Source: Vulcanimicrobiota bacterium (GTDB taxonomy: Bacteria; Vulcanimicrobiota; Vulcanimicrobiia; Vulcanimicrobiales; Vulcanimicrobiaceae). Taken from it: a stretch of 64,000 nt of DNA. This document shows, piece after piece, positions 36,193-47,131 of the stretch (positions are counted from its first letter, which is position 1; each line of letters opens with the position of its first letter). The stretch is taken from assembly GCA_963714015.1 (NCBI GenBank), contig OY970223.1, forward strand, positions 2,240,001-2,304,000, written 5' to 3'. A model generated the notes under the pieces. The model was given only the letters and a program-made list of their open reading frames with translations. It ran no database searches and was not told the DNA's origin. A program made the translations under genes and the position numbers.

Positions 36193-36243
36193 ATGCATGA
36201 AGCAGTCCGGACGATTATTGCCGTAGCAACGCGGAGACTATGA
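36193..36243 (+). other. candidate bridging mini-ORF (16 aa, [16 protein letters not shown])
   Basis: Starts 4 nt after the rplW stop; its TGA overlaps the rplB start. Confidence 0.35.
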
Positions 36244-37070
36244 TGCCAGTCAAAAAATACAAGCCGACCAGTCCCGGCAGACGCTTCGTGACGACGATGG
36301 ATTTCTCGGACCTGAGCAAGGTCGAGCCGGAGAAATCGCTCATCGAAGTGCGCAAGAAGCACTCGGGCCGTAACTTCAACGGGCACATTACCGTACGCCA
36401 CAAAGGCGGCGGGACGCGCAAGATGTACCGCATCATCGACTTCAAACGGACCAAAGACGCCGTTCCGGCCAAGGTGGCAACGATCGAATACGATCCGAAC
36501 CGCTCGGCTCGCATCGCGCTGGTGAACTATCGCGACGGCGAGAAGCGCTACATCCTCGCGCCGCTCGGTCTGAAGGTCGGCGACGTCGTCGAGTCCGGCG
36601 CCGCGGCCGACATCAAGATCGGCAACTGCCTTCCGATCAAAAACATCCCCGTCGGCACGGTCATTCACAACATCGAACTGCGGCCCGGACAAGGCGGCAA
36701 GCTCGTTCGCAGCGCCGGCGGCTCCGCACAGCTCATGGCCAAGGAAGGCGAATACGCCCAGGTACGTATGCCTTCGGGCGAGGTGCGCAAGGTGCTCGTG
36801 GTGTGCCGCGCGACGATCGGTCAGCTCGGCAACGTCGAGCACGAAAACGAAGTGGTAGGGAAAGCAGGTCGTCAGCGTCATCGCGGAAAGCGGCCGTCCG
36901 TTCGAGGCATTGCGATGAACCCGGTCGATCACCCGCACGGCGGCGGTGAAGCGCGTTCCACGTCCGGACGTCCGCCCACGACGCCTTGGGGCCAGATGAC
37001 GATGGGCAAGAAGACGCGCCGCAACAAGCGCACGCAAAACATGATCGTCCGTAAGAGAGGATCGAAATGA
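36243..37070 (+). CDS. rplB: 50S ribosomal protein L2
   Basis: [33 protein letters not shown]; alternative ATG at 36240. Confidence 0.99.
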
Positions 37071-37147
37071 TTCGAGTTCTGTTAGCCGTATGCGAGCCGC
37101 GCGATTCAGCGCGGCGGGCGCGCAGCTCAGAGTGGAGCGCCTTCTAA
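37067..37147 (+). other. candidate bridging mini-ORF (26 aa)
   Basis: ATGA overlap with the rplB stop; TAA ends 1 nt before the rpsS ATG. Confidence 0.4.
37096..37141 (+). repeat. structured intergenic element, short form (before rpsS)
   Basis: GCCGCGC-GATTCA-GCGCGGC hairpin, then GGCGC-GCA-GCT-CAG-AGT-GGA-GCGCC, 7 nt before ATG. Confidence 0.85.
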
Positions 37148-37148
37148 A

Positions 37149-37424
37149 ATGGGGCGCAGCCTTAAAAAGGGACCGTTCGTCGCGGATCGCTTGATTCAAA
37201 AAATCGAGGGCCTGAACGAGCGCCGTGAAAAGCGTGTCGTGAAAACGTGGAGTCGCGCCTCCACGATCGTGCCGGCCATGGTCGGCCATACAATCGGCGT
37301 GCACAACGGTAAGGCGCACGTTCCGGTATTCGTCACCGAAAATATGGTCGGGCACAAGCTCGGCGAGTTCGCGCCGACCCGGAACTTCCGCGGCCACGGC
37401 GGCGACAAAGCGGCGGTGAAGTAA
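37149..37424 (+). CDS. rpsS: 30S ribosomal protein S19
   Basis: [27 protein letters not shown]. Confidence 0.99.
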
Positions 37425-37933
37425 TGGAGGCCGTCGCGCATCTCAAGTTCGCCCGAATGGGTCCGCGCAAACTGCGCCGGGTTGCCGACGCCATTCGCGG
37501 CAAGAGCGTGAAAGAAGCGCTCGTGCTGCTGCAATTTGCCGGCGTCTTCGCGGCCGAGCCGATGGAAAAACTGCTGCGCAGCGCCGTCGCGAACGCTGAA
37601 AACAATCACGACATGAATGCCGACGCACTTTACGTTGCGCGGGTGACGGTGGACGGCGGGCCGGGCGGACGATTTACCAAACGCCTGGATCCGCGTGCAC
37701 AAGGGCGCGCGGCGTTCAAGCGCAAGCGCCTCGCGCACGTGACGATCGCCGTCGCAGAGCAGGCGCCCGTCAAAAAGCGCAAGCTCCTGGGCGGTGCTTC
37801 GGTTGCGCTCAAGCGCGCGACCACTCGCAAAACTAAAGCGGCGTCGGCGGCGCCGGCCGCCGGCGGCTCGCCTTCGAAGAAGGCCAGAACTTCAAAGAAA
37901 CCTTCTCGCCGGAATAAGGCGGAGGCGATTTAA
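37424..37933 (+). CDS. rplV: 50S ribosomal protein L22 with Lys/Ala-rich C-terminal extension
   Basis: [32 protein letters not shown]. Confidence 0.97.
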
Positions 37934-38829
37934 TGGGACAAAAGATTCATCCGATTGGGTTGCGTCTGGGCATCACGCGCACGTGGGACAGCCGCTGGTT
38001 CGAGAAAAAGCATTATAAGGACTGGCTGCACGAAGACGTCAAGATCCGCAGATACTTCACGCGATGGATGCGTCCGGCGGCCATCTCGAAGATCGAGATC
38101 GAGCGCCGCGCCAATCAAGCGCGCGTGATCGTGAATACGGGCAAGCCCGGCATCATCATCGGCAAGCGCGGCGTCGGCATCGAAGACATTCGCAAGAATC
38201 TCGAGAAGCTGACCGGCAAAGCGGTGCAAGTAAACGTGATGGAGATCAAGCATCCGGAACTGGATGCGCGTCTCGTCGCGCAGAATATCGTCGACCAGCT
38301 CGAAAAGCGCATTGCGTTCCGCCGCGCCATGAAGCAGGCCATCATGCGTACGATGAAGTCGGGCGCGCGCGGGATCAAAGTGCAGGTTTCGGGACGGTTG
38401 GGCGGCGCCGAAATCGCTCGCACCGAGCGCAATGCCGACGGCAAGGTTCCGCTGCACACGCTGCGAGCCGACATCGACTACGCGCACGTCGAAGCTTTCA
38501 CGACCTTCGGACGCATCGGCGTCAAAGTATGGATCTACCGCGGCGAAGTGCTGCCGGATCACGCACGTCAATCCGAGCGCGAAGGACGCCCCGAGCGTCC
38601 GCAATTCCGCGATCGTCGCGATCGCGGCGGACGCAGCCGCCGCGGCGGTCCCGGCACGGGAACTCCGCGTTCGCCGCAGACTGAAGCGCTTTCGCCCGTC
38701 GAAGCGCCCGTCGGCGAAGCGCCGGCCTTTGAGCCGACCGCGCCGCCGGTAGACTCTGCGCCCATTGCCGATGCGGCAGAGGCTCAAACCATCGTACCGC
38801 AATCCGAACCGACCGGAGAACAGGCGTAA
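37933..38829 (+). CDS. rpsC: 30S ribosomal protein S3 with long C-terminal extension
   Basis: [33 protein letters not shown]. Confidence 0.99.
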
Positions 38830-39251
38830 TGCTTACACCAAAACGCGTCAAATGGCGCAAAGTTCACCGTGGACGGATGACCGGCAAAGCCTTGCGCGGC
38901 AGTACCTTGACGTTCGGCGAGTACGGACTTCAAGCGCTCGAGCCGTGCTGGATGACCAACCGCCAGATTGAAGCTGCGCGTATTGCTATGACGCGCCACA
39001 TCAAACGCGGCGGCAAGGTCTGGATCAAGGTGTTTCCGGACAAGTCGGTTACCAAGAAACCCGCTGAGGTGCGCATGGGCGCCGGTAAAGGCAACCCGGA
39101 GTTCTGGGTAGCCGTGGTGCGTCCCGGGCGGGTGCTGTTCGAGCTTTCAGGTGTTGAGCCGGACGTAGCCAAACGCGCGCTTCAACTCGCCGCTTCAAAG
39201 CTGCCGATCGGAACGAAGTTGATTACCCGCGGCGAGGAGGCCCCGGCATGA
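38829..39251 (+). CDS. rplP: 50S ribosomal protein L16
   Basis: [21 protein letters not shown]. Confidence 0.99.
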
Positions 39252-39469
39252 TCTCGAGAGAGTTCAAAGAGCTGCGCAACCTCACCATCGGAGAGCTCCA
39301 GCAAAAGGCGAAAGAGACGAAGGAAGAGCTCTTCAATCTTCGCTTTGCGCTGCGCACCGGGCACCTTTCGGACTTCAGCAAAGTCCGGGCGATGCGGCGC
39401 ACCTACGCACAGATTCAAACCGTCATCTCCGAGAAACGGATCGCTGAGGCTAAGAATGGAGCAGCTTAA
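39248..39469 (+). CDS. rpmC: 50S ribosomal protein L29
   Basis: ELR.L...EL......KEELFNLRF...TG.L; expected position. Confidence 0.96.
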
Positions 39470-39728
39470 TACCGTCCGGCGCCGGGCACGGCGCCTTAAA
39501 CAAGGCCGCGTCGTCTCGGACAAGATGGACAAGACCATCGTCGTCCTTTCCGAGACGCGGGTTCCGCATCCGGTTTACGGCAAGATCGTCCGCAAGTCGG
39601 TAAAGTTCAAAGCGCACGACGAGCAAAACGACGCCAAGATCGGCGACACCGTTCGCATCATGGAATCGCGTCCGATGTCCAAAGACAAGCGCTGGCGCCT
39701 GGTCGAGATCGTGGAGCGTGCCAAATGA
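39456..39728 (+). CDS. rpsQ: 30S ribosomal protein S17
   Basis: [31 protein letters not shown]. Confidence 0.98.
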
Positions 39729-39796
39729 AGACTTTGATTGGGGCGCATCGCGTTATGGGGCGCGCGGAGCTCAGAGCGGAGCGCCTTTTCAAATGA
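39725..39796 (+). other. candidate bridging mini-ORF (23 aa, [23 protein letters not shown])
   Basis: ATGA overlap with the rpsQ stop at its start and with the rplN start at its end. Confidence 0.45.
39761..39785 (+). repeat. structured intergenic element, short form (before rplN)
   Basis: CGCGC-GGA-GCT-CAG-AGC-GGA-GCGCC, 7 nt before ATG. Confidence 0.88.
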
Positions 39797-40170
39797 TTCA
39801 GCAAGAAACGCGTTTAAAGGTGGCTGACAATTCCGGCGCGCGCGAGCTGCTGTGCATTCACGTGAGCGGCGGCAGCCGTCATCCATACGCACACGTGGGC
39901 GATATCATCGTGGGCACGGTCAAGAGCGCTATTCCCGGCGCGGCGGTCAAGAAAGGCCAAGTCGTCAAAGCGGTTATCGTCCGTACGTCCTCGCCGATTC
40001 GCCGGCCGGACGGATCGGTCGTCAAATGCGACGACAACGCCTGCGTGATCATCAAAGGCGAAAAGGACAATTTAGATCCGCGCGGGACGCGCGTCTTCGG
40101 CCCGGTCATGCGCGAATTGCGGGATCGCGGCTTTTTGAAGATCGCCTCGCTCGCGCCCGAGGTACTCTAA
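39793..40170 (+). CDS. rplN: 50S ribosomal protein L14
   Basis: [31 protein letters not shown]. Confidence 0.99.
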
Positions 40171-40173
40171 CAG

Positions 40174-40524
40174 ATGGCGAACATCGTCAGAGGCGACACC
40201 GTCATGATCCGGCGCGGCAAGGAAAAAGGCAAGCGCGGCACGGTCAAGGCCGTATTTCCGAAAGACGGAACGGCGACGGTCGAGGGCCTGAACATCGTCA
40301 AACGGCACACCAAGCAGGGCACGCAGTCGCAAAACATGGGCGGCTCTGCGCAGACCGGCGGCATCATCGAGAAGGAGGCTCCGCTTCCACTCTCCGTGCT
40401 GATGTACGTGTGCGAGAAGTGCAAAGCACCTTCTCGGCTTCGTCATCACGAGACGGCCGAAGGTACGCATCGGGTCTGCGCGCGCTGCGGCGAACCCGCT
40501 CGTCTCTCCGCAAAGGGCGCATGA
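40174..40524 (+). CDS. rplX: 50S ribosomal protein L24
   Basis: GDTV...GKEKGKRG, VEGLNIVKRH, GGIIEKEAP; C-terminal CxxC...CxxC. Confidence 0.98.
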   Translation: MANIVRGDTVMIRRGKEKGKRGTVKAVFPKDGTATVEGLNIVKRHTKQGTQSQNMGGSAQTGGIIEKEAPLPLSVLMYVCEKCKAPSRLRHHETAEGTHRVCARCGEPARLSAKGA

Positions 40525-40652
40525 TGGCAGTATCATTGTGGGCTTCCTCGGGGAGGTTTCAAGTTGCAACAAAGTTCGCGCGCCCTGCGGTAGCGGGGAC
40601 CCCGGCGCTTGCGCTGGGTGGGGCGGAGGTTAGACCGGAGCGCCATGCTTAG
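40521..40652 (+). other. candidate bridging mini-ORF (43 aa)
   Basis: ATGA overlap with the rplX stop; reads through the whole element and stops 8 nt into rplE. Confidence 0.4.
40541..40644 (+). repeat. structured intergenic element, long form (before rplE)
   Basis: CCTCGGGGAGG...CAACAAAG...CGCGCCCTGCGG...variable hairpin...GGGGC-GGA-GGT-TAG-ACC-GGA-GCGCC, directly abutting ATG. Confidence 0.9.
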
Positions 40653-41196
40653 ATTGAAAGAAAAATACGATAAGGAAGTCCGCAAGCAGCTTCAGGAACG
40701 CTTCGGATATAAGAACGCTCACCAGATCCCGAAGCTGGAGAAGGTCGTCATCAACATGAGCGTGGGCGAAGCGATCAGCAACGGCAAGGCACTCGACGCG
40801 GCGGTCTCGGAGCTCCAGGCGATTAGCGGGCAAAAGCCGGTAATCACCAAAGCGAAGAAGTCGATAGCCGCCTTTAAGCTGCGCGAAGGCATGAACATCG
40901 GCACGAAAGTCACGCTCCGCGGCGAGCGCATGTACGTGTTCTTGGACAAGCTCTTCAACATCGTGCTGCCGCGCATCCGCGACTTCCGCGGTCTGCCCCG
41001 CAAATCGTTCGACGGACGCGGCAATTACAATCTGGGTCTTCGCGAGCAGATCGTCTTCCCGGAGATCAACTTCGACAAGGTCGACAAGATGCGCGGGATG
41101 GACATCGTCATCGTAACGTCGGCAAAGAACGACGAAGAAGCGACGGAATTTCTCACGGCAATGGGTTTGCCGCTTCAGAAAACGGGAGCCCGCTAA
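40645..41196 (+). CDS. rplE: 50S ribosomal protein L5
   Basis: [33 protein letters not shown]. Confidence 0.99.
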
Positions 41197-41381
41197 TGGC
41201 GAAAACTTCTCTCATCGAAAAATCCAAGCGCACGCCAAAGTTCAAGGTGCGCGCCCACAACCGGTGCCAGCTGTGCGGACGTCCGCGCAGCGTGTACCGC
41301 CGTTTCGGGCTGTGCCGCATCTGCTTCCGGGAGAACGCCCACAAAGGCAACATCCCGGGCGTGACCAAGGCGTCGTGGTGA
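41196..41381 (+). CDS. rpsN: 30S ribosomal protein S14, short zinc-binding type
   Basis: 61 aa with [17 protein letters not shown] and PGVTKASW. Confidence 0.98.
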
Positions 41382-41388
41382 TCCGGTA

Positions 41389-41790
41389 ATGGCTGTAATT
41401 ACCGATCCTATCGCCGATCTGCTGACGCGCATTCGCAATGCCAATACGGCCAGCCATGAGGTCGTTGAAATTCCTGCGTCGCGCATGAAACAAGCTGTGG
41501 CTCAAATCCTCAAGGACGAGGGCTTCATCAAGGACTTCGAGCGCGTCGACGAGGGGCCGCAAGGCAGGATCAAGATCACTCTCAAGTACGGCCCGGACAA
41601 AGAGAAAGTCATCACCGGTCTGCGGCGCATCTCGCGTCCCGGTCTGCGCGTATATACGAGCAAGACCGAGATACCTCGGGTTTTAGGCGGACTGGGCCTG
41701 GTCATCATGTCCACTTCCAAGGGCATCATGTCGGGCAAACGCGCGAAAAAAGAAGGATGCGGAGGCGAAGTTTTGGCGTATGTGTGGTGA
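41389..41790 (+). CDS. rpsH: 30S ribosomal protein S8
   Basis: [37 protein letters not shown]. Confidence 0.99.
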
Positions 41791-41900
41791 TGAACAAAGC
41801 GACAATCGGGGCGCCCTCGGGGAGGCTTCAAATTACAACGCATCTTCCGCGCCCTGCGGCGGGGGGCCCCATTGGTTGCAATGGGGGGCGCGGAGCTTAG
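41790..41900 (+). other. candidate bridging mini-ORF (36 aa)
   Basis: TGATG overlap with the rpsH stop; its stop codon is the TAG loop of the conserved hairpin. Confidence 0.4.
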
Positions 41901-41911
41901 AGCGGAGCGCC
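41810..41911 (+). repeat. structured intergenic element, long form (before rplF)
   Basis: GGCGCCCTCGGGGAGGCTT...CAAC...CGCGCCCTGCGG...CCCCATTG-GTTG-CAATGGGG-GGCGC-GGA-GCT-TAG-AGC-GGA-GCGCC, 7 nt before ATG. Confidence 0.92.
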
Positions 41912-41918
41912 ACTTAAA

Positions 41919-42467
41919 ATGTCTAGAATTGGAAAGCTTCCCGTAACTGTTCCGAACGGCGTCAATGTGAACGTCGAAGGAGACGAAGTCGCGGTCAAGG
42001 GGCCAAAGGGCGAGTTGCGGCAGCGCGTGCTTTCACACGTCACCGTCGCGGTCGAAGACGGCAAGGTCGTCATCACGCGGAACGGTGAGGCGAAGGAACA
42101 TCGCGCGGCGCACGGTCTGACGCGAACGATCGTCAACAACATGGTCGAAGGCGTCAGCAAGGGCTTCCGCAAGAGCCTGGAGATTCAGGGTGTCGGTTAC
42201 CGAGCCTCAAAGTCCGGCGAGAAGATCAATCTGACGCTGGGGTACTCGCATCCGGTGAGCTACGATCCGCCGAAGGGCATCGCGCTTTCCGTCGAGGGCA
42301 CCAACAAGATCCACGTCGAGGGCATCGACAAGCAGCAAGTCGGACAGGTTGCCGCCGAAATTCGCAATCTGCGTCCGCCCGAGCCGTACAAGGGTAAAGG
42401 CGTGCGCTACGAAGGCGAAGTGGTGCGTAAGAAGCTCGGCAAGGCCGGAAAGGCTGGTAAGAAGTAA
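41919..42467 (+). CDS. rplF: 50S ribosomal protein L6
   Basis: [26 protein letters not shown]. Confidence 0.99.
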
Positions 42468-42832
42468 TGCCGCGTATTTCCAAAGATCTGAGCCGCCGCA
42501 AGCGCCACGAGCGTCTGCGCCGCAAAGTCGTGGGAAGCTCGGAGCGCCCTCGCTTGCTGATCCGCCGTACGCTGCATCACATCTACGCGACGGTCGTCGA
42601 CGACGCTAAGGGGCATACCGTCGTGGCCGCCTCGACGCGCGAGAAGGATCTTACGGACGGTTTGGATTCCACGACGAACGTCGCCGCAGCCGAGAAGATC
42701 GGCGCGGCAATCGCCGCTAAGGCAAAGCAGGCCGGCATCACGCAGGTCGTCTTCGATCGCAGCGGTTTGAAATATCACGGCCGCGTCAAAGCACTCGCCG
42801 ACGCAGCTCGCCAAGCAGGCTTGGAGTTTTAA
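42467..42832 (+). CDS. rplR: 50S ribosomal protein L18
   Basis: RH.RLR.KV.G..ERPRL, VVFDRSG.KYHGRV.ALA. Confidence 0.98.
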
Positions 42833-43344
42833 TGCAGTATCGTGGTGGTCGCGATCGCGACAATTCGGGATTCGAAGAGACAGTCGTCCGAGTGAACCGC
42901 GTCGCCAAAGTGGTCAAGGGCGGTAAGCGCTTCAGCTTCAGCGCTTTGGTCGTTGTCGGCGATCGCAAAGGCAAGGTCGGTTTCGCTATCGGCAAGGCCG
43001 GCGAAGTCCCCGAAGCAATCCGCAAAGCCGTTGAGGCGGCCAAGAAAAACCTCGTCTCCGTGCCGATGGTCGAGAAGACGATCCCGCATCAGGTCAATCA
43101 TTCGATCGGTGCGGCGCGCGTGCTCCTCAAACCCGCGGCGCCCGGTACCGGGGTCATTGCGGGCGGCGCTATGCGCGCGGTGCTGGAGCTCGCGGGCATT
43201 CACGACATTCTGACCAAGTCGCTCGGAACGAACAATCCGATCAACGTCGTCTACGCGACGGTAGAAGCGCTGCGTTCGCTCAAGACGGCGGAGCAAGTTG
43301 CATCGATGCGCGGCAAGAACGTCGGCGAAATCTTCGCGGCATAA
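42832..43344 (+). CDS. rpsE: 30S ribosomal protein S5
   Basis: [30 protein letters not shown]. Confidence 0.99.
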
Positions 43345-43358
43345 GAAAGCACACGAAC

Positions 43359-43961
43359 ATGGCAGAGAAGAAAACGTCCAAAGCCGCAACCTCGCGCAAG
43401 AAGGCTCCGGCGGCAAAGGCGGCAGCAAAGAAGCGAAGCACGGCAAGTGCCGTCACCGCCGCCGCGATTGCGTCCGGGAGCGGCTCGATGTCGCTTGGAA
43501 AGCTCAAACCGGCCGAAGGCAGCTGGCCCAAGCGCACGCGCGTGGGCCGCGGTCACGGTTCCGGAATGGTTAAGACCGGCGGCGAAGGCGGCAAAGGTCA
43601 GACGGTGCGTTCCGGCGGCGGTAAAGGTCCGGCGTTCGAAGGCGGACAGACACCTTGGCAGCGCCGTCTTCCGCATCGTCGCGGCTACTCGCAAAAAGCC
43701 CGCGACATCGGTCATTTCCGGACCGAGCTCGCGGTTGTAAATCTGCATGACCTTGCGGACTGGGACGCCTCGGTCGAAGTGACGCCGCAGACGCTCAAGG
43801 TCGCGAAGAAGATCAAAGCCGTGCGCGACGGCGTGAAGGTCCTCGGCGGTAGCAAGGCGGGGAAGACGCTTCCGAACGGCCTTCGTTTCCGCGACGTTTT
43901 ATTCTCGACCAGCGCAAAGGAAGCACTGCAAGCCGCCGGCGCCACCTTCGATGCTGAATAA
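43359..43961 (+). CDS. rplO: 50S ribosomal protein L15 with 43-aa Lys/Ala-rich N-terminal extension (alternative start 43488)
   Basis: RVGRGHGSG..KTGG.GGKGQ..RSG, FEGGQTP..RRLP, VKVLG. Confidence 0.95.
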   Translation: MAEKKTSKAATSRKKAPAAKAAAKKRSTASAVTAAAIASGSGSMSLGKLKPAEGSWPKRTRVGRGHGSGMVKTGGEGGKGQTVRSGGGKGPAFEGGQTPWQRRLPHRRGYSQKARDIGHFRTELAVVNLHDLADWDASVEVTPQTLKVAKKIKAVRDGVKVLGGSKAGKTLPNGLRFRDVLFSTSAKEALQAAGATFDAE

Positions 43962-45255
43962 TCTTCGCGCAGCTCTGCTCGTACCGGACATCCGCAAGCG
44001 GGTGCTCTTCGTGTTCGGCGCGTTCGCGACGTTCGTCTTTATGATCCACGTGCAGCTGCCGAACATCGATGAAAAAGTTTGGCAGCAGGTGCTCTCGCAG
44101 GGCGCGTTCTTCAACCTGCTCGGCTTTCTGTCGGGCGGCGCACTGCAGAAGCTCTCCATCATTGCGATGGGCATCACCCCGTACATCAACGCGTCGATCA
44201 TCATGCAGCTCATGACGGTGGTGCTGCCGCAACTCGAAGAGATGGCCAAGAAAGGCGGCGAGGAAGGCCGCAAGAAGATCGGTCAGTACACTCGCTGGCT
44301 AACGATTGTGCTCGCTGCACTCCAATCGTTTTTCATGGCCAATCTGATGCGCAACTCCGGCGTGTTCTACGACCGGAGCATCTGGTTTCTGCTCTTCGCG
44401 ATGCTGGCGTTCGTCGCCGGTACGCTGTTCCTGATGTGGCTCGGCGAGCAGGTCACCGACAAGGGCATCGGCAACGGCGTCTCGCTGATCATCTTCATCG
44501 GTATCGTGCTGCGCTATCCGCAGTACGTAGCCCAAACGTTCGCCTCGACCTCCAAAGGCGGCGAGTCCGTTTTCAACATCCTCATTTACGTCCTGATAGC
44601 GATAGGCGTAATCATCTCGATCGTCTTCCTTTATCAAGGGCAGCGCCGCATTCCGGTGCAGCAGGCGCGCCGCGTCGTGGGCCGCAAGATGTTCGCGGGC
44701 CGCTCCACGTATATTCCGTTGCGGCTGAACAACGCGGGCGTCATCTCGATCATCTTCGCAATCTCGCTGCTGCTGCTTCCCCAGCAAGTTCTCTCGTGGG
44801 TCAACAAGGCGCAGAACGGCGGCTCGTCCAGCGGATTCATGGGCGGCCTCTCGACGTTCTTCCAGGTCTACTTCCACCCGCAGTCGGCGCTGTACAACAT
44901 CGTCTATTTCGTGCTGGTCGTCGTCTTCACGTTCTTCTACAGCGCGATCGTCATCAACACCAAAGACATCGCGGACAACCTGAAAAAGAGCGGGTCGTTC
45001 ATCCCGGGAATCCGTCCGGGTCAACCGACGGTCGACTACATCAATCGCATCTTGCTGCGAATCACGACGGCCGCCGCGATCTATCTCGGATTGCTCGCGG
45101 TCGTGCCCAGCATTGCCCAGCAAGGACTCTCCGTTACTACGTTCTACTTGGGTTCAACGTCACTGCTGATCGTGGTCGGCGTGGCGCTGGATACGATCAC
45201 GCAGATCGAGGCGCGCCTGGCGATGCGCGACTACAAGGGATTCATCCGCAGGTAG
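43951..45255 (+). CDS. secY: preprotein translocase subunit SecY
   Basis: GITPYINASIIMQL, WLGEQ.T.KGIGNG.SL, FIPGIRPG, TSLLIVVGV. Confidence 0.99.
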   Translation: MLNNLRAALLVPDIRKRVLFVFGAFATFVFMIHVQLPNIDEKVWQQVLSQGAFFNLLGFLSGGALQKLSIIAMGITPYINASIIMQLMTVVLPQLEEMAKKGGEEGRKKIGQYTRWLTIVLAALQSFFMANLMRNSGVFYDRSIWFLLFAMLAFVAGTLFLMWLGEQVTDKGIGNGVSLIIFIGIVLRYPQYVAQTFASTSKGGESVFNILIYVLIAIGVIISIVFLYQGQRRIPVQQARRVVGRKMFAGRSTYIPLRLNNAGVISIIFAISLLLLPQQVLSWVNKAQNGGSSSGFMGGLSTFFQVYFHPQSALYNIVYFVLVVVFTFFYSAIVINTKDIADNLKKSGSFIPGIRPGQPTVDYINRILLRITTAAAIYLGLLAVVPSIAQQGLSVTTFYLGSTSLLIVVGVALDTITQIEARLAMRDYKGFIRR

Positions 45256-45262
45256 GGGCGTA

Positions 45263-45928
45263 GTGCGGTTGATCTTCATCGGTCCGCCCGGCGCGGGCAA
45301 GGGCACGCAGGCAAAGATTCTGCAAGAGCGCTTCGGCGCCAAGCAGATCTCGACCGGCGACATCTTGCGTGAGAATCGGGAGCAAGGAACGGAGCTCGGC
45401 AAGCTCGCGGCGAGCTTCATGCAGAGCGGCGCGCTGGTTCCGGACGAGGTCATCATCAAGATGATCGAAGCGGAGCTCGACAAGCTCGACGGCGGTTTCA
45501 TCATGGACGGTTTTCCACGAACGGTCGCGCAGGCGGAAGCGTTCGACTGTTTATTGCAGGGCAAGAACCTCGTCCTCGACGGCGTGGTTCACTTCAACGC
45601 GGACCGCGCAACGCTGCTTACGCGTCTGACGGCGCGCTGGACGAACCCGCGCAACGGCCAAACCTACAACACCGTGACCAATCCGCCGCGCGTTTCGGGT
45701 GTGGACGACGAAGACGGCGGCCCGCTCGTGCAGCGTGAGGACGACAAACCGGAAACCGTTACGAAGCGTCTGGACGTGTACGAGGAGCAAACCGCGCCGC
45801 TTGTCTCCTACTATCGCGGGACGGGAAAACTCGTCGAAGTGAACGCGCTTGCGCCGGTTCCTGCGGTCACCGAAGAGATCGTTTCGAAGATCGGTGTGCA
45901 CGCCGCCGGGCGCAACGCGGCGCAATGA
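45263..45928 (+). CDS. adk: adenylate kinase
   Basis: GPPGAGKGTQA, STGDILR, DGFPRT, QREDD. Confidence 0.98.
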   Translation: MRLIFIGPPGAGKGTQAKILQERFGAKQISTGDILRENREQGTELGKLAASFMQSGALVPDEVIIKMIEAELDKLDGGFIMDGFPRTVAQAEAFDCLLQGKNLVLDGVVHFNADRATLLTRLTARWTNPRNGQTYNTVTNPPRVSGVDDEDGGPLVQREDDKPETVTKRLDVYEEQTAPLVSYYRGTGKLVEVNALAPVPAVTEEIVSKIGVHAAGRNAAQ

Positions 45929-46728
45929 TCACGATCAAGTCGGCCCGTGAAATCGAGGTGATGCGGCGCAGCGGAAAGGTCAACGCCAAGGTGCTGGCCG
46001 ATCTGATGCGCGCGGCCAAGCCCGGCATGACGACGCGCGATCTCGACAAGATGGCCGAGCAAGGCATTCGATCGCTGGGCGCTGAGCCGACGTTCAAAGG
46101 TTATCACGGGTATACGTGTTCGATCTGCACGTCGGCGAACGATCAAGTCGTGCACGGAATTCCCGGCGACTACGCTTTGAAGGAAGGCGACCTGCTCTCG
46201 ATCGACATCGGGGCGACGCTCGAGGGCTACGTCAGCGACTCGGCTGTAACGATTCCGATCGGCAAAGTCTCCGAGGACGCTCAGCGGCTGATGCACGTGA
46301 CGCAGGAGTGCTTAATGATTGGAATCGCGCAGATGTATCGGGGCAAGCATTTGGGCGACATCGGCCACGCGGTTCAAAAGCACGCCGAATCGCACGGATA
46401 CGGCGTGGTCCGCGAACTAGTCGGGCACGGCGTCGGAACGAAAATGCACGAGGAGCCGCAAGTCCCGAACTACGGCAAGGCAGGCGGGGGGTTGGAGCTT
46501 CGGTCGGGGCTTGTCCTGGCCATCGAGCCCATGATAACGCAAGGCCACTACGCCGTGGAAACGCTCAAGGACGGCTGGACAGTGGTGACCGCAGATGGTA
46601 AACTCGCAGCGCACTTCGAGCACACCATCGCCATCACCGACGACGGCCCCAAGATTCTTACCTTGCGCGAAATCGGGGAGCATCCCGACGTCGCGAAGTA
46701 CCGGCCAAAGGAAGAGATGGCCGCATGA
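45925..46728 (+). CDS. map: methionine aminopeptidase type I
   Basis: VVHGIP, IDIG...DSA, GHGVG..MHEEP, AIEPM, AHFEHT. Confidence 0.98.
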   Translation: MITIKSAREIEVMRRSGKVNAKVLADLMRAAKPGMTTRDLDKMAEQGIRSLGAEPTFKGYHGYTCSICTSANDQVVHGIPGDYALKEGDLLSIDIGATLEGYVSDSAVTIPIGKVSEDAQRLMHVTQECLMIGIAQMYRGKHLGDIGHAVQKHAESHGYGVVRELVGHGVGTKMHEEPQVPNYGKAGGGLELRSGLVLAIEPMITQGHYAVETLKDGWTVVTADGKLAAHFEHTIAITDDGPKILTLREIGEHPDVAKYRPKEEMAA

Positions 46729-46743
46729 GGTGGTGCTCGATGG

Positions 46744-47007
46744 GGCGCGGAGGCTAGGCCGAAGCGCCGTTAGAAATCGTCCCGGCGCCCCTCGGGGAGG
46801 CTTGGACCGGCAACAAAGCACTAGGGCGCCTGAGGAATCGGGGGCCCCATGAAATGGGGGGCGCGGAGGCTAGGCCGAAGCGCCGCTAGATCGAGCAAAA
46901 TCGTCCCGGCGCCCCTCGGGGAGGCTTGGACGGCAACAAAGCACTAGGGCGCCTGAGGAATCGGGGGCCCCATGAAATGGGGGGCGCGGAGGCTAGGCCG
47001 AAGCGCC
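46744..47007 (+). repeat. tandem array of the structured element (three terminal hairpins, two full long-form units)
   Basis: GGCGC-GGA-GGC-TAG-GCC-GAA-GCGCC at 46744, 46860 and 46983. Long units 46784-46884 and 46908-47007 differ by one base. Confidence 0.95.
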
Positions 47008-47014
47008 GTTAGAT

Positions 47015-47131
47015 ATGAAAGTCAGACCGTCAGTAAAACGAATCTGTGAAAAATGCAAAATCATTCGCCGCGAAGGTAAAGTGCGCGTGATCTGCGAGGT
47101 CAATCCCAAGCACAAGCAAGTGCAGGGTTAG
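47015..47131 (+). CDS. rpmJ: 50S ribosomal protein L36
   Basis: Manual translation [38 protein letters not shown] (below the ORF-track length cutoff). Confidence 0.99.

Follow-up and report, generated by a model that had tools for sequence, protein, structure and literature searches.

The S10/spc ribosomal-protein operon, from rplW to rpmJ, was examined in a 3.56-Mb genome of a Vulcanimicrobiota bacterium (G000), within the window, which is the whole stretch of 64,000 nucleotides (nt) analysed (contig OY970223.1, positions 2,240,001 to 2,304,000). Several spacers of this operon hold copies of a short repeat that ends in a hairpin, and small open reading frames (mini-ORFs) run into or across these copies. 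Genes were assigned by matching the window ORF translations to relatives by tblastn, and the operon was compared at every junction between the window copy (WIN) and 20 relatives, giving 21 genomes. Repeat units were located with an nhmmer profile built from 15 copies. Six of the mini-ORFs had been described in an earlier note on this DNA; all six were re-derived by script at the same coordinates and none contains an internal stop. The mini-ORFs, with their lengths in amino acids (aa), and the repeat units are listed in order along the window.

36193-36243, + strand: mini-ORF between rplW and rplB, 16 aa, in a spacer without the hairpin
37067-37147, + strand: mini-ORF between rplB and rpsS in a 78-nt spacer, 26 aa, ATGA on the rplB stop
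37095-37149 (genome 2277095-2277149), + strand: truncated repeat unit (model positions 74-128), from nhmmer; hairpin 37117-37141
39725-39796, + strand: mini-ORF between rpsQ and rplN in a 64-nt spacer, 23 aa, ATGA at each end, entry on the rpsQ stop
39754-39793, + strand: truncated repeat unit, from nhmmer; hairpin 39761-39785
40521-40652, + strand: mini-ORF between rplX and rplE, 43 aa, ATGA on the rplX stop
40529-40649, + strand: full repeat unit, from nhmmer and the covariance model; hairpin 40620-40644, its stem abutted by the rplE ATG at 40645
41780-41917, + strand: alternative bridge ORF between rpsH and rplF, 45 aa, starting within the last rpsH codons
41790-41900, + strand: mini-ORF of the earlier note between rpsH and rplF, 36 aa, TGATG on the rpsH stop
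41797-41918, + strand: full repeat unit, from nhmmer and the covariance model; hairpin 41887-41911
46725-46757, + strand: mini-ORF after map, 10 aa, ATGA on the map stop
46742-47013, + strand: array of one hairpin-only and two full repeat units, from nhmmer and the motif pattern; hairpins 46744-46768, 46860-46884 and 46983-47007, followed by the rpmJ ATG at 47015

In all five spacers that bear the element, the mini-ORF opens on an ATG overlapping the upstream stop, as had been reported in the note, with ATGA at four entries (rplB, rpsQ, rplX and map) and TGATG at one (rpsH). An overlapping ATG is present at 254 of 1120 TGA stops without a coupled neighbour (22.7%; a crude set of long ORFs with high GC at third codon positions), and at this rate five out of five would be expected with a probability of ~6e-4. 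This null is generous, because relatives show these junctions coupled before insertion. The rplW-rplB mini-ORF is of a different kind; its ATG lies 5 nt past the rplW TAA with no overlap, and its TGA overlaps the rplB ATG at 36243 (TGATG). ORFs akin to it, with a common ATGCAT motif, are found in the relatives' loci L032 and L043.

The mini-ORFs end in several ways. The TAA of the rplB-rpsS ORF ends 1 nt ahead of the rpsS ATG (37149), and the TAG of the rplX-rplE ORF ends 7 nt inside rplE. The ORFs that begin at 41790 and 46725 both end on a hairpin loop TAG, at 41898-41900 (18 nt ahead of the rplF ATG) and at 46755-46757 (the first loop of the array, 258 nt short of the rpmJ ATG). This too had been seen in the note, but stopping on the loop did not hold up as a shared feature, since the loops of relatives are mostly TGG (genome G015) or CAG (G013), and the loop TAG is therefore rejected as a functional stop. 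Between rpsH and rplF, the complete bridge is instead the longer ORF 41780-41917, absent from the note, whose TAA ends 1 nt ahead of the rplF ATG (41919). The 10-aa ORF after map ends too far from rpmJ to act as a relay into it, as had been supposed.

The hairpins proved to be part of a genome-wide repeat, which goes beyond the earlier description. The hairpin motif occurs seven times in the window, always on the + strand and in this operon, against 0.01 expected, and 33 times across the genome when up to two mismatches are allowed. The profile search of G000 gave 43 units in 26 arrays of one to five tandem units, with a period of ~110-131 nt. The full unit is ~125 nt long and the hairpins form its 3' end: each terminal hairpin is followed by an A/T-rich tail of 5-8 nt, and then by the ATG or GTG of a gene.

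When 42 distinct units taken from several genomes are aligned, they support a fold of three helices and a small hairpin, with 96.1% of the pair cells paired. Double changes were counted in 60 cells, compared with 18.5 +/- 2.9 in shuffled alignments (0 of 500 shuffles matched this number) and 11 at most in slid controls. The terminal hairpin has a 5-bp GGCGC/GCGCC stem, a 3x3 internal loop (G-N-A facing G-N-A) and a 3-bp stem which covaries (GC:CG 24:16; CG:UA 30:9). The motif CYCGGGGAG is nearly invariant among the units. A search of the 64-kb window against Rfam 15 at the gathering score gave no matches, ribosomal-protein leaders included. Intrinsic termination was considered and rejected, as none of the seven hairpins was flagged by a terminator scan and their tails have four T at most.

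The repeat is placed with respect to gene starts throughout G000. In 20 of the 26 arrays, the last unit lies no more than 2 nt from the ATG or GTG of a long ORF on the same strand, and three more arrays end 8-17 nt ahead of such an ORF. Across G009 and G015 together, 23 of 30 terminal hairpins are 5-8 nt ahead of a long ORF, three are at 21-23 nt and four have none. The element appears to insert at start codons. Eleven downstream genes examined by their Pfam names are functionally mixed: an LpxA-like acyltransferase, type II secretion system protein F, a WYL/HTH regulator, NifU_N, RF-1, GyrB, a PASTA Ser/Thr kinase, a class V aminotransferase, a member of the ATP synthase alpha/beta family, FliH, and one without a match.

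Its taxonomic range is narrow. With at most 23 candidates considered per genome, so that unit counts are to be read as "at least", the covariance model detects the element in 50 of 71 further genomes of this Eremiobacterota family and in none of 79 genomes that represent 20 other families within the phylum; an earlier search with an exact pattern had detected it in 11 of 24 same-family genomes (G023 included). Public records with the motif carry, by their titles, the names Candidatus Baltobacteraceae, Elarobacter, Lustribacter, Vulcanimicrobiaceae, Eremiobacterota and WPS-2. Motif matches in high-GC genomes of other phyla are taken to be chance, the pattern being degenerate. Among the sequencing runs listed for the locus there is no RNA run, and the only one is a soil DNA run with a 0.16 share of the words. 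Of the papers that a search on Eremiobacterota intergenic repeats returned, judged by titles and abstract openings, none appears to treat such an element.

Three arrays of G000 depart from the usual layout. The five-unit array at G000:C1:798965-799523 (+), upstream of an mreB-like ORF, has four initial units of ~110 nt without the terminal hairpin (model positions ~5-102); it contains stops in all frames, and the gene starts 10 nt past the array, behind its own GGAG. At G000:C1:2740120-2740284 a full unit (-) stands head to head with a hairpin-only unit (+), and the pair adjoins the 3' end of an apparent tRNA gene, a rare site other than a protein start. At G000:C1:1950500-1950691 (+) the 5' 30 nt of the element (ACGAATCTCCCCGGCGCCCTCGGGGAGTGA) are present three times in tandem, followed by a full unit; the ORF downstream is presumably fliG, which it resembles at its N-terminus.

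Comparison with relatives reveals the same junctions in empty and filled form. Where G000 is filled, the junctions of element-free relatives overlap or nearly abut: empty rplB-rpsS sites are mostly TAATG, empty rpsQ-rplN sites are [A/G]TGA, and empty rplX-rplE and rpsH-rplF sites have gaps of 0-6 nt in most relatives. Among genomes of the same genus, G002 lacks the element at each of the five operon sites; G001 has it at rplB-rpsS and upstream of rpmJ, and shows a remnant of 30 nt at rpsH-rplF. Tandem copy number also varies between relatives, as seen at rpsH-rplF (one unit in G000, two units with a leading half hairpin in G007 (L033), the remnant in G001 and none in G002) and in the G000 arrays of one to five units. 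Outside the operon, the three-unit array ahead of gyrB is present in G000 only and absent from G001, G002, G007, G009 and G015; in these five array-free relatives the upstream stop is followed by the gyrB ATG at a distance of 0-11 nt. G000 keeps the old ATG position at the left edge of the array, where an ATG 7 nt past that stop opens a mini-ORF, and it has a GTG behind the array as its gyrB start. The differences within the genus and at gyrB would support recent insertion or loss.

At rpsQ-rplN, an empty site contains a single CAA[A/G]TGA (L031, L032 and L035), and ATGA is found on both sides of the insert when the site is filled. Where it can be traced, at rpsQ-rplN and gyrB, the entry ATG is thus, to judge from the empty sites, the displaced original start. 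The earlier note had raised this as a caveat, that some ATGs could be original coupled starts left behind, and the caveat is borne out at both sites; it describes how a relay would have arisen, and is not an alternative to one. Both flanks of the insert have ATG or ATGA in common, in some cases extended by a few bases. A fixed target-site duplication was considered and is not established, given that the distance from the left ATGA to the conserved 5' motif of the element varies from 3 to 9 nt.

The rpmJ region shows further variation. Most relatives have infA between map and rpmJ, a position at which G000 has the repeat array and no infA (46729-47014); an IF-1 homologue, 57% identical, is encoded elsewhere at G000:C1:2604412-2604681 (-), locus L206. 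In L038 (G008) a different GC-rich repeat occupies both the infA-rpmJ and the rpmJ-rpsM spacers; it does not match the element and neither spacer is bridged.

Whether spacers are bridged by a complete ORF was scored under two rules. Under the strict rule, a single ORF must begin at an ATG or GTG that overlaps or abuts the upstream stop, and its own stop must fall in the range from 6 nt before the first base of the downstream start to 10 nt after it; this was applied to operon spacers of 30-300 nt, with 1000 dinucleotide shuffles per spacer as the null. The moderate rule allowed entry within -10 to +9 nt and permitted restarts. A first, lenient test (32 of 54 bridged, 16.5 expected) had nulls of up to 1.0 for short spacers and was superseded by the strict rule. 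All P values given here are nominal, because the copies and genomes are related, the criteria were chosen post hoc and the gene calls outside the operon are crude.

Under the strict rule, complete bridges were found in 8 of 13 element-bearing operon spacers (1.96 expected, nominal P = 3e-7) and in 10 of 41 other operon spacers (4.18 expected, nominal P = 2e-4). Three of the five element spacers in the window are bridged strictly, and rpsH-rplF is a fourth through ORF 41780-41917. The test was extended to junctions of G000, G009 and G015 with a long same-strand ORF upstream of the element, the upstream genes outside the operon being taken from a crude ORF rule. Here 14 of 37 junctions were bridged under the strict rule and 25 of 37 under the moderate rule, compared with 3.6 and 5.7 expected. 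As a control for an open frame inherited with the repeat family, the entry codon was examined in the 22 spacers of up to 250 nt that have one: in 16 of them its frame is open as far as a stop at the start, where random frames would give 7.3 (binomial P = 1.8e-4).

The position of the exit stop is also regular. It falls on or beside the start codon at 37 of 39 junctions. A TAA or TAG in the tail is seen at 13 of 15 starts which do not themselves form NTGA, compared with 10 of 24 starts that do (Fisher P = 0.008). One of the two exceptions is rplE, where the TAG comes directly after the ATG. At gyrB the second codon is AGT in G000, which creates a GTGA exit, compared with TCA in G001. Single ORFs of 129 and 112 codons cross three-unit arrays in G000, and in the array ahead of the kinase gene the frame restarts on ATGA after a 128-nt unit.

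The rplE start itself has an unusual make-up. Its N-terminus reads MLR in G000 and MNR in G001 and G002 (window 40645-40653); what is usually tail sequence (CTTAGA) now forms codons 2 and 3, and the ATG adjoins the hairpin stem. A different arrangement is seen at L195 (G015), which has a TGG loop: the frame of the downstream gene is open through the whole element, and an ATG on the upstream stop could add a 39-aa N-terminal extension with no separate mini-ORF.

Bridging is kept up across relatives as the spacers change. Every rplB-rpsS spacer of at least 18 nt among the 21 genomes is bridged (seven of seven: WIN, L031, L033, L034, L036, L037 and L045), with entries on TGA, TAA or TAG, lengths of 18-164 nt, and stops on, against or 1 nt ahead of the start codon. 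The elements of WIN and L031 at this site differ in length by 48 nt, which is in frame, and bridging persists in deletion remnants of 29-41 nt in L034, L031 and L036. NTGA is present at either end of all four long rpsQ-rplN spacers. At rpsH-rplF, an ATG within conserved Tyr-Val-Trp codons opens the bridge in WIN, L031, L036, L037 and L047 despite spacers of 30-141 nt. The peptides are not conserved as a set, as the note had observed, and what is kept at rplB-rpsS and in the long rpsQ-rplN spacers is the start overlap and the stop position, as its reading anticipated.

The explanation that we favour, and hold to be reasonably probable, is that these spacers contain a family-specific, structured repeat, similar to the interspersed repetitive units of mycobacteria (MIRUs), that inserts at starts, and that the putative mini-ORFs relay ribosomes across it. 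At a coupled junction, the displaced original start would stay on or beside the upstream stop and open a frame through the element. The stop of this frame would either overlap the regenerated start, as ATGA or GTGA, or be a TAA or TAG in the tail, 0-2 nt ahead of that start. A ribosome ending the upstream gene could then re-initiate on the mini-ORF, unwind the hairpins as it translates, terminate at the real start and re-initiate there. Such a relay across the hairpins would leave translational coupling unbroken by a structured insertion. The comparisons above establish the anatomy, distribution and covariation of the repeat, its empty and filled sites, and the enrichment and frame matching of the bridges; translation of the mini-ORFs, re-initiation and a selective benefit, as well as the way in which the element moves, we infer. 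The relay does not explain the conserved fold, which may serve mobility or an RNA-level role.

A number of observations weigh against this explanation. Even under the moderate rule, 12 of the 37 junctions are without a bridge; map-rpmJ in G000 has none either, and of five element-bearing infA-rpmJ spacers of relatives only two have one. In L031 and L039, rpmJ has its own AGGAA ahead of the ATG. Spacers at rpsE-rplO and rpmJ-rpsM are almost never bridged, and short spacers of the rpsQ-rplN type are bridged in 55-71% of shuffles, so often that short spacers have no statistical weight. Some of the frame match could come from the element's own length and not from selection acting at each site. Many arrays precede genes without a close upstream partner, where coupling cannot be their role. 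Single-sequence folding energies were no different from those of shuffles (z +0.22 to -1.41); they are uninformative in such GC-rich sequence, and the case for structure therefore rests on covariation. Shared descent of the copies, post hoc criteria and crude gene calls, which keep the P values nominal, count on this side as well. The relay proposed in the earlier note is supported in part: complete bridges and frame matches exceed shuffled and random expectation, but it would not extend to map-rpmJ or to the three unbridged infA-rpmJ spacers.

Another explanation, which is possible though we consider it unlikely, is that the mini-ORFs are a by-product of insertion at starts, with the old ATG left behind and either untranslated or translated to no effect, and that the downstream genes initiate alone, by means of the A/U-rich tail and a GGAG carried on the hairpin's 3' arm. 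The identity of the entry ATG with the old start at rpsQ-rplN and gyrB is consistent with this, as are the arrays that have no upstream partner, the unbridged map-rpmJ spacer and the AGGAA of rpmJ in L031 and L039. The 16S 3' end carries the canonical CCTCC, and GGAG lies 11 nt ahead of the ATG in most window copies. Against it, this spacing is longer than the 6-10 nt between the Shine-Dalgarno (SD) sequence and the start at native starts of the operon, and many units have GAAG or GCAG in place of the SD-like GGAG. The tail (TTTTAAA-ATG or TTTTCAA-ATGA) resembles the native coupled junction rplD-rplW (TAAAATG). Together, the loss of GGAG, the 11-nt spacing and the coupled-type tail favour termination-reinitiation over independent initiation, by a ribosome which would have opened the hairpins in the course of translating them. 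A frame match above one third (16/22), the correlation of the tail stop with the fourth base of the start and the bridging retained by deletion remnants would also not be expected of a by-product.

Going beyond a tolerated insertion, the repeat could be a portable translation-initiation cassette with its own RNA fold, a suggestion that we regard as improbable. The helices and the CYCGGGGAG motif, in which a GGAGG-like stretch is complementary to the 16S CCUCC, would then recruit or park ribosomes or a regulator. If so, one mobile post-transcriptional control element would be shared by about two dozen unrelated genes per genome, among them gyrB, those for RF-1 and an ATP synthase alpha/beta-family member, and ribosomal-protein genes.

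It is quite improbable, in our view, that the element is mainly a cis-acting RNA module which marks co-regulated genes, for example as a protein or ribosome binding site, a processing or stabilising structure, or a weak terminator read through by the ribosome, with the ORFs incidental. The three covarying helices and the near-invariant CYCGGGGAG suggest a single-strand constraint that would suit such a module, and so would the strict orientation to genes and the fixed distance to the start. However, there is no Rfam match in the window, the hairpins were not flagged by the terminator scan, the downstream genes are functionally mixed, and presence varies within the genus, something uncommon in a regulon; a role of the structure in mobility would be just as possible. 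Chance, whereby a TGA stop readily yields ATGA or TGATG and stops are scarce in GC-rich spacers, was already disfavoured and is hardly credible, since the background overlap rate of 22.7% and the frequent bridging of shuffled short spacers are outweighed by the five-of-five overlap (~6e-4), the enrichment over dinucleotide shuffles in three genomes and the recurrence of the architecture in relatives with other lengths and stop codons.

A relay of this kind would explain the odd long spacers in a tightly coupled ribosomal-protein operon, and offers naturally occurring systems in which termination-reinitiation through stable RNA structure can be tested. It also calls for caution in annotation, as gene callers will miss the mini-ORFs or misplace the adjacent starts. 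The arrays may supply variable-copy-number markers with which Eremiobacterota populations could be told apart.

Other genes of the operon also show peculiarities. The rpmD gene (L30) was not seen between rpsE and rplO (window 43345-43961), where the gap is 14 nt, and the rplO ORF is 200 aa long with an N-terminal extension rich in Lys and Ala. Long C-terminal extensions rich in Ala, Pro, Lys and Arg are present in rplV (169 aa) and rpsC (298 aa) (window 37424-38829).

Several known systems resemble the element in part. The repetitive extragenic palindromic (REP) sequences and bacterial interspersed mosaic elements (BIMEs), the REPINs with their RAYT transposases and elements derived from IS200/IS605 are short GC-rich intergenic hairpin repeats, and REP elements are typically found at gene ends. 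The present copies differ in being direct tandem repeats in one orientation, with no inverted pairs, and in lying at gene starts. The Y1 transposase PF01797 had no matches in G000, G009, G013 or G015; in the family that carries the element it was matched once, in G016 only, and G016 shows no element. A REP/RAYT or IS200/IS605 origin was therefore rejected, as the element-rich genomes have no Y1 transposase. Rickettsia palindromic elements are mobile palindromes inserted in frame inside protein genes; they are alike in being mobile palindromic repeats tolerated by keeping a frame open, but the present repeats lie between genes, as separate mini-ORFs.

In bicistronic designs, a short leader ORF brings the ribosome to the downstream gene. 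The likeness here is that the start codon of the gene is where a short ORF ends, so that RNA structure upstream does not block initiation; the present element differs in being natural, repeated and mobile-looking, with the structured part inside the leader ORF. Synthetic bicistronic designs are also mentioned beside MIRUs in excerpts of PMC12548453.

The closest comparison is with the MIRUs themselves. According to the same excerpts (PMC12548453), these are apparently mobile, insert at start codons and have an internal ORF coupled at -4, which probably keeps effects on expression to a minimum. On this description, both are dispersed, apparently mobile repeats that are co-oriented with genes and sit on start codons, both contain an ORF whose ATGA (-4) overlap couples it to the gene downstream, and tandem copy number varies in both. 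The likeness is one of description, and the present repeat differs in belonging to another phylum (Eremiobacterota). Its unit is longer (~125 nt), with three covarying helices, it exits either by ATGA or by a TAA or TAG in a short tail, and many copies precede genes without a close upstream partner. The MIRU principle, of a mobile repeat surviving in operons through its own coupled mini-ORF, would thus be extended to an uncultivated phylum, with a conserved fold added to it. By analogy, the repeat can be placed as a new, structured and family-specific variant of the MIRU kind, with which the match would be one of function.

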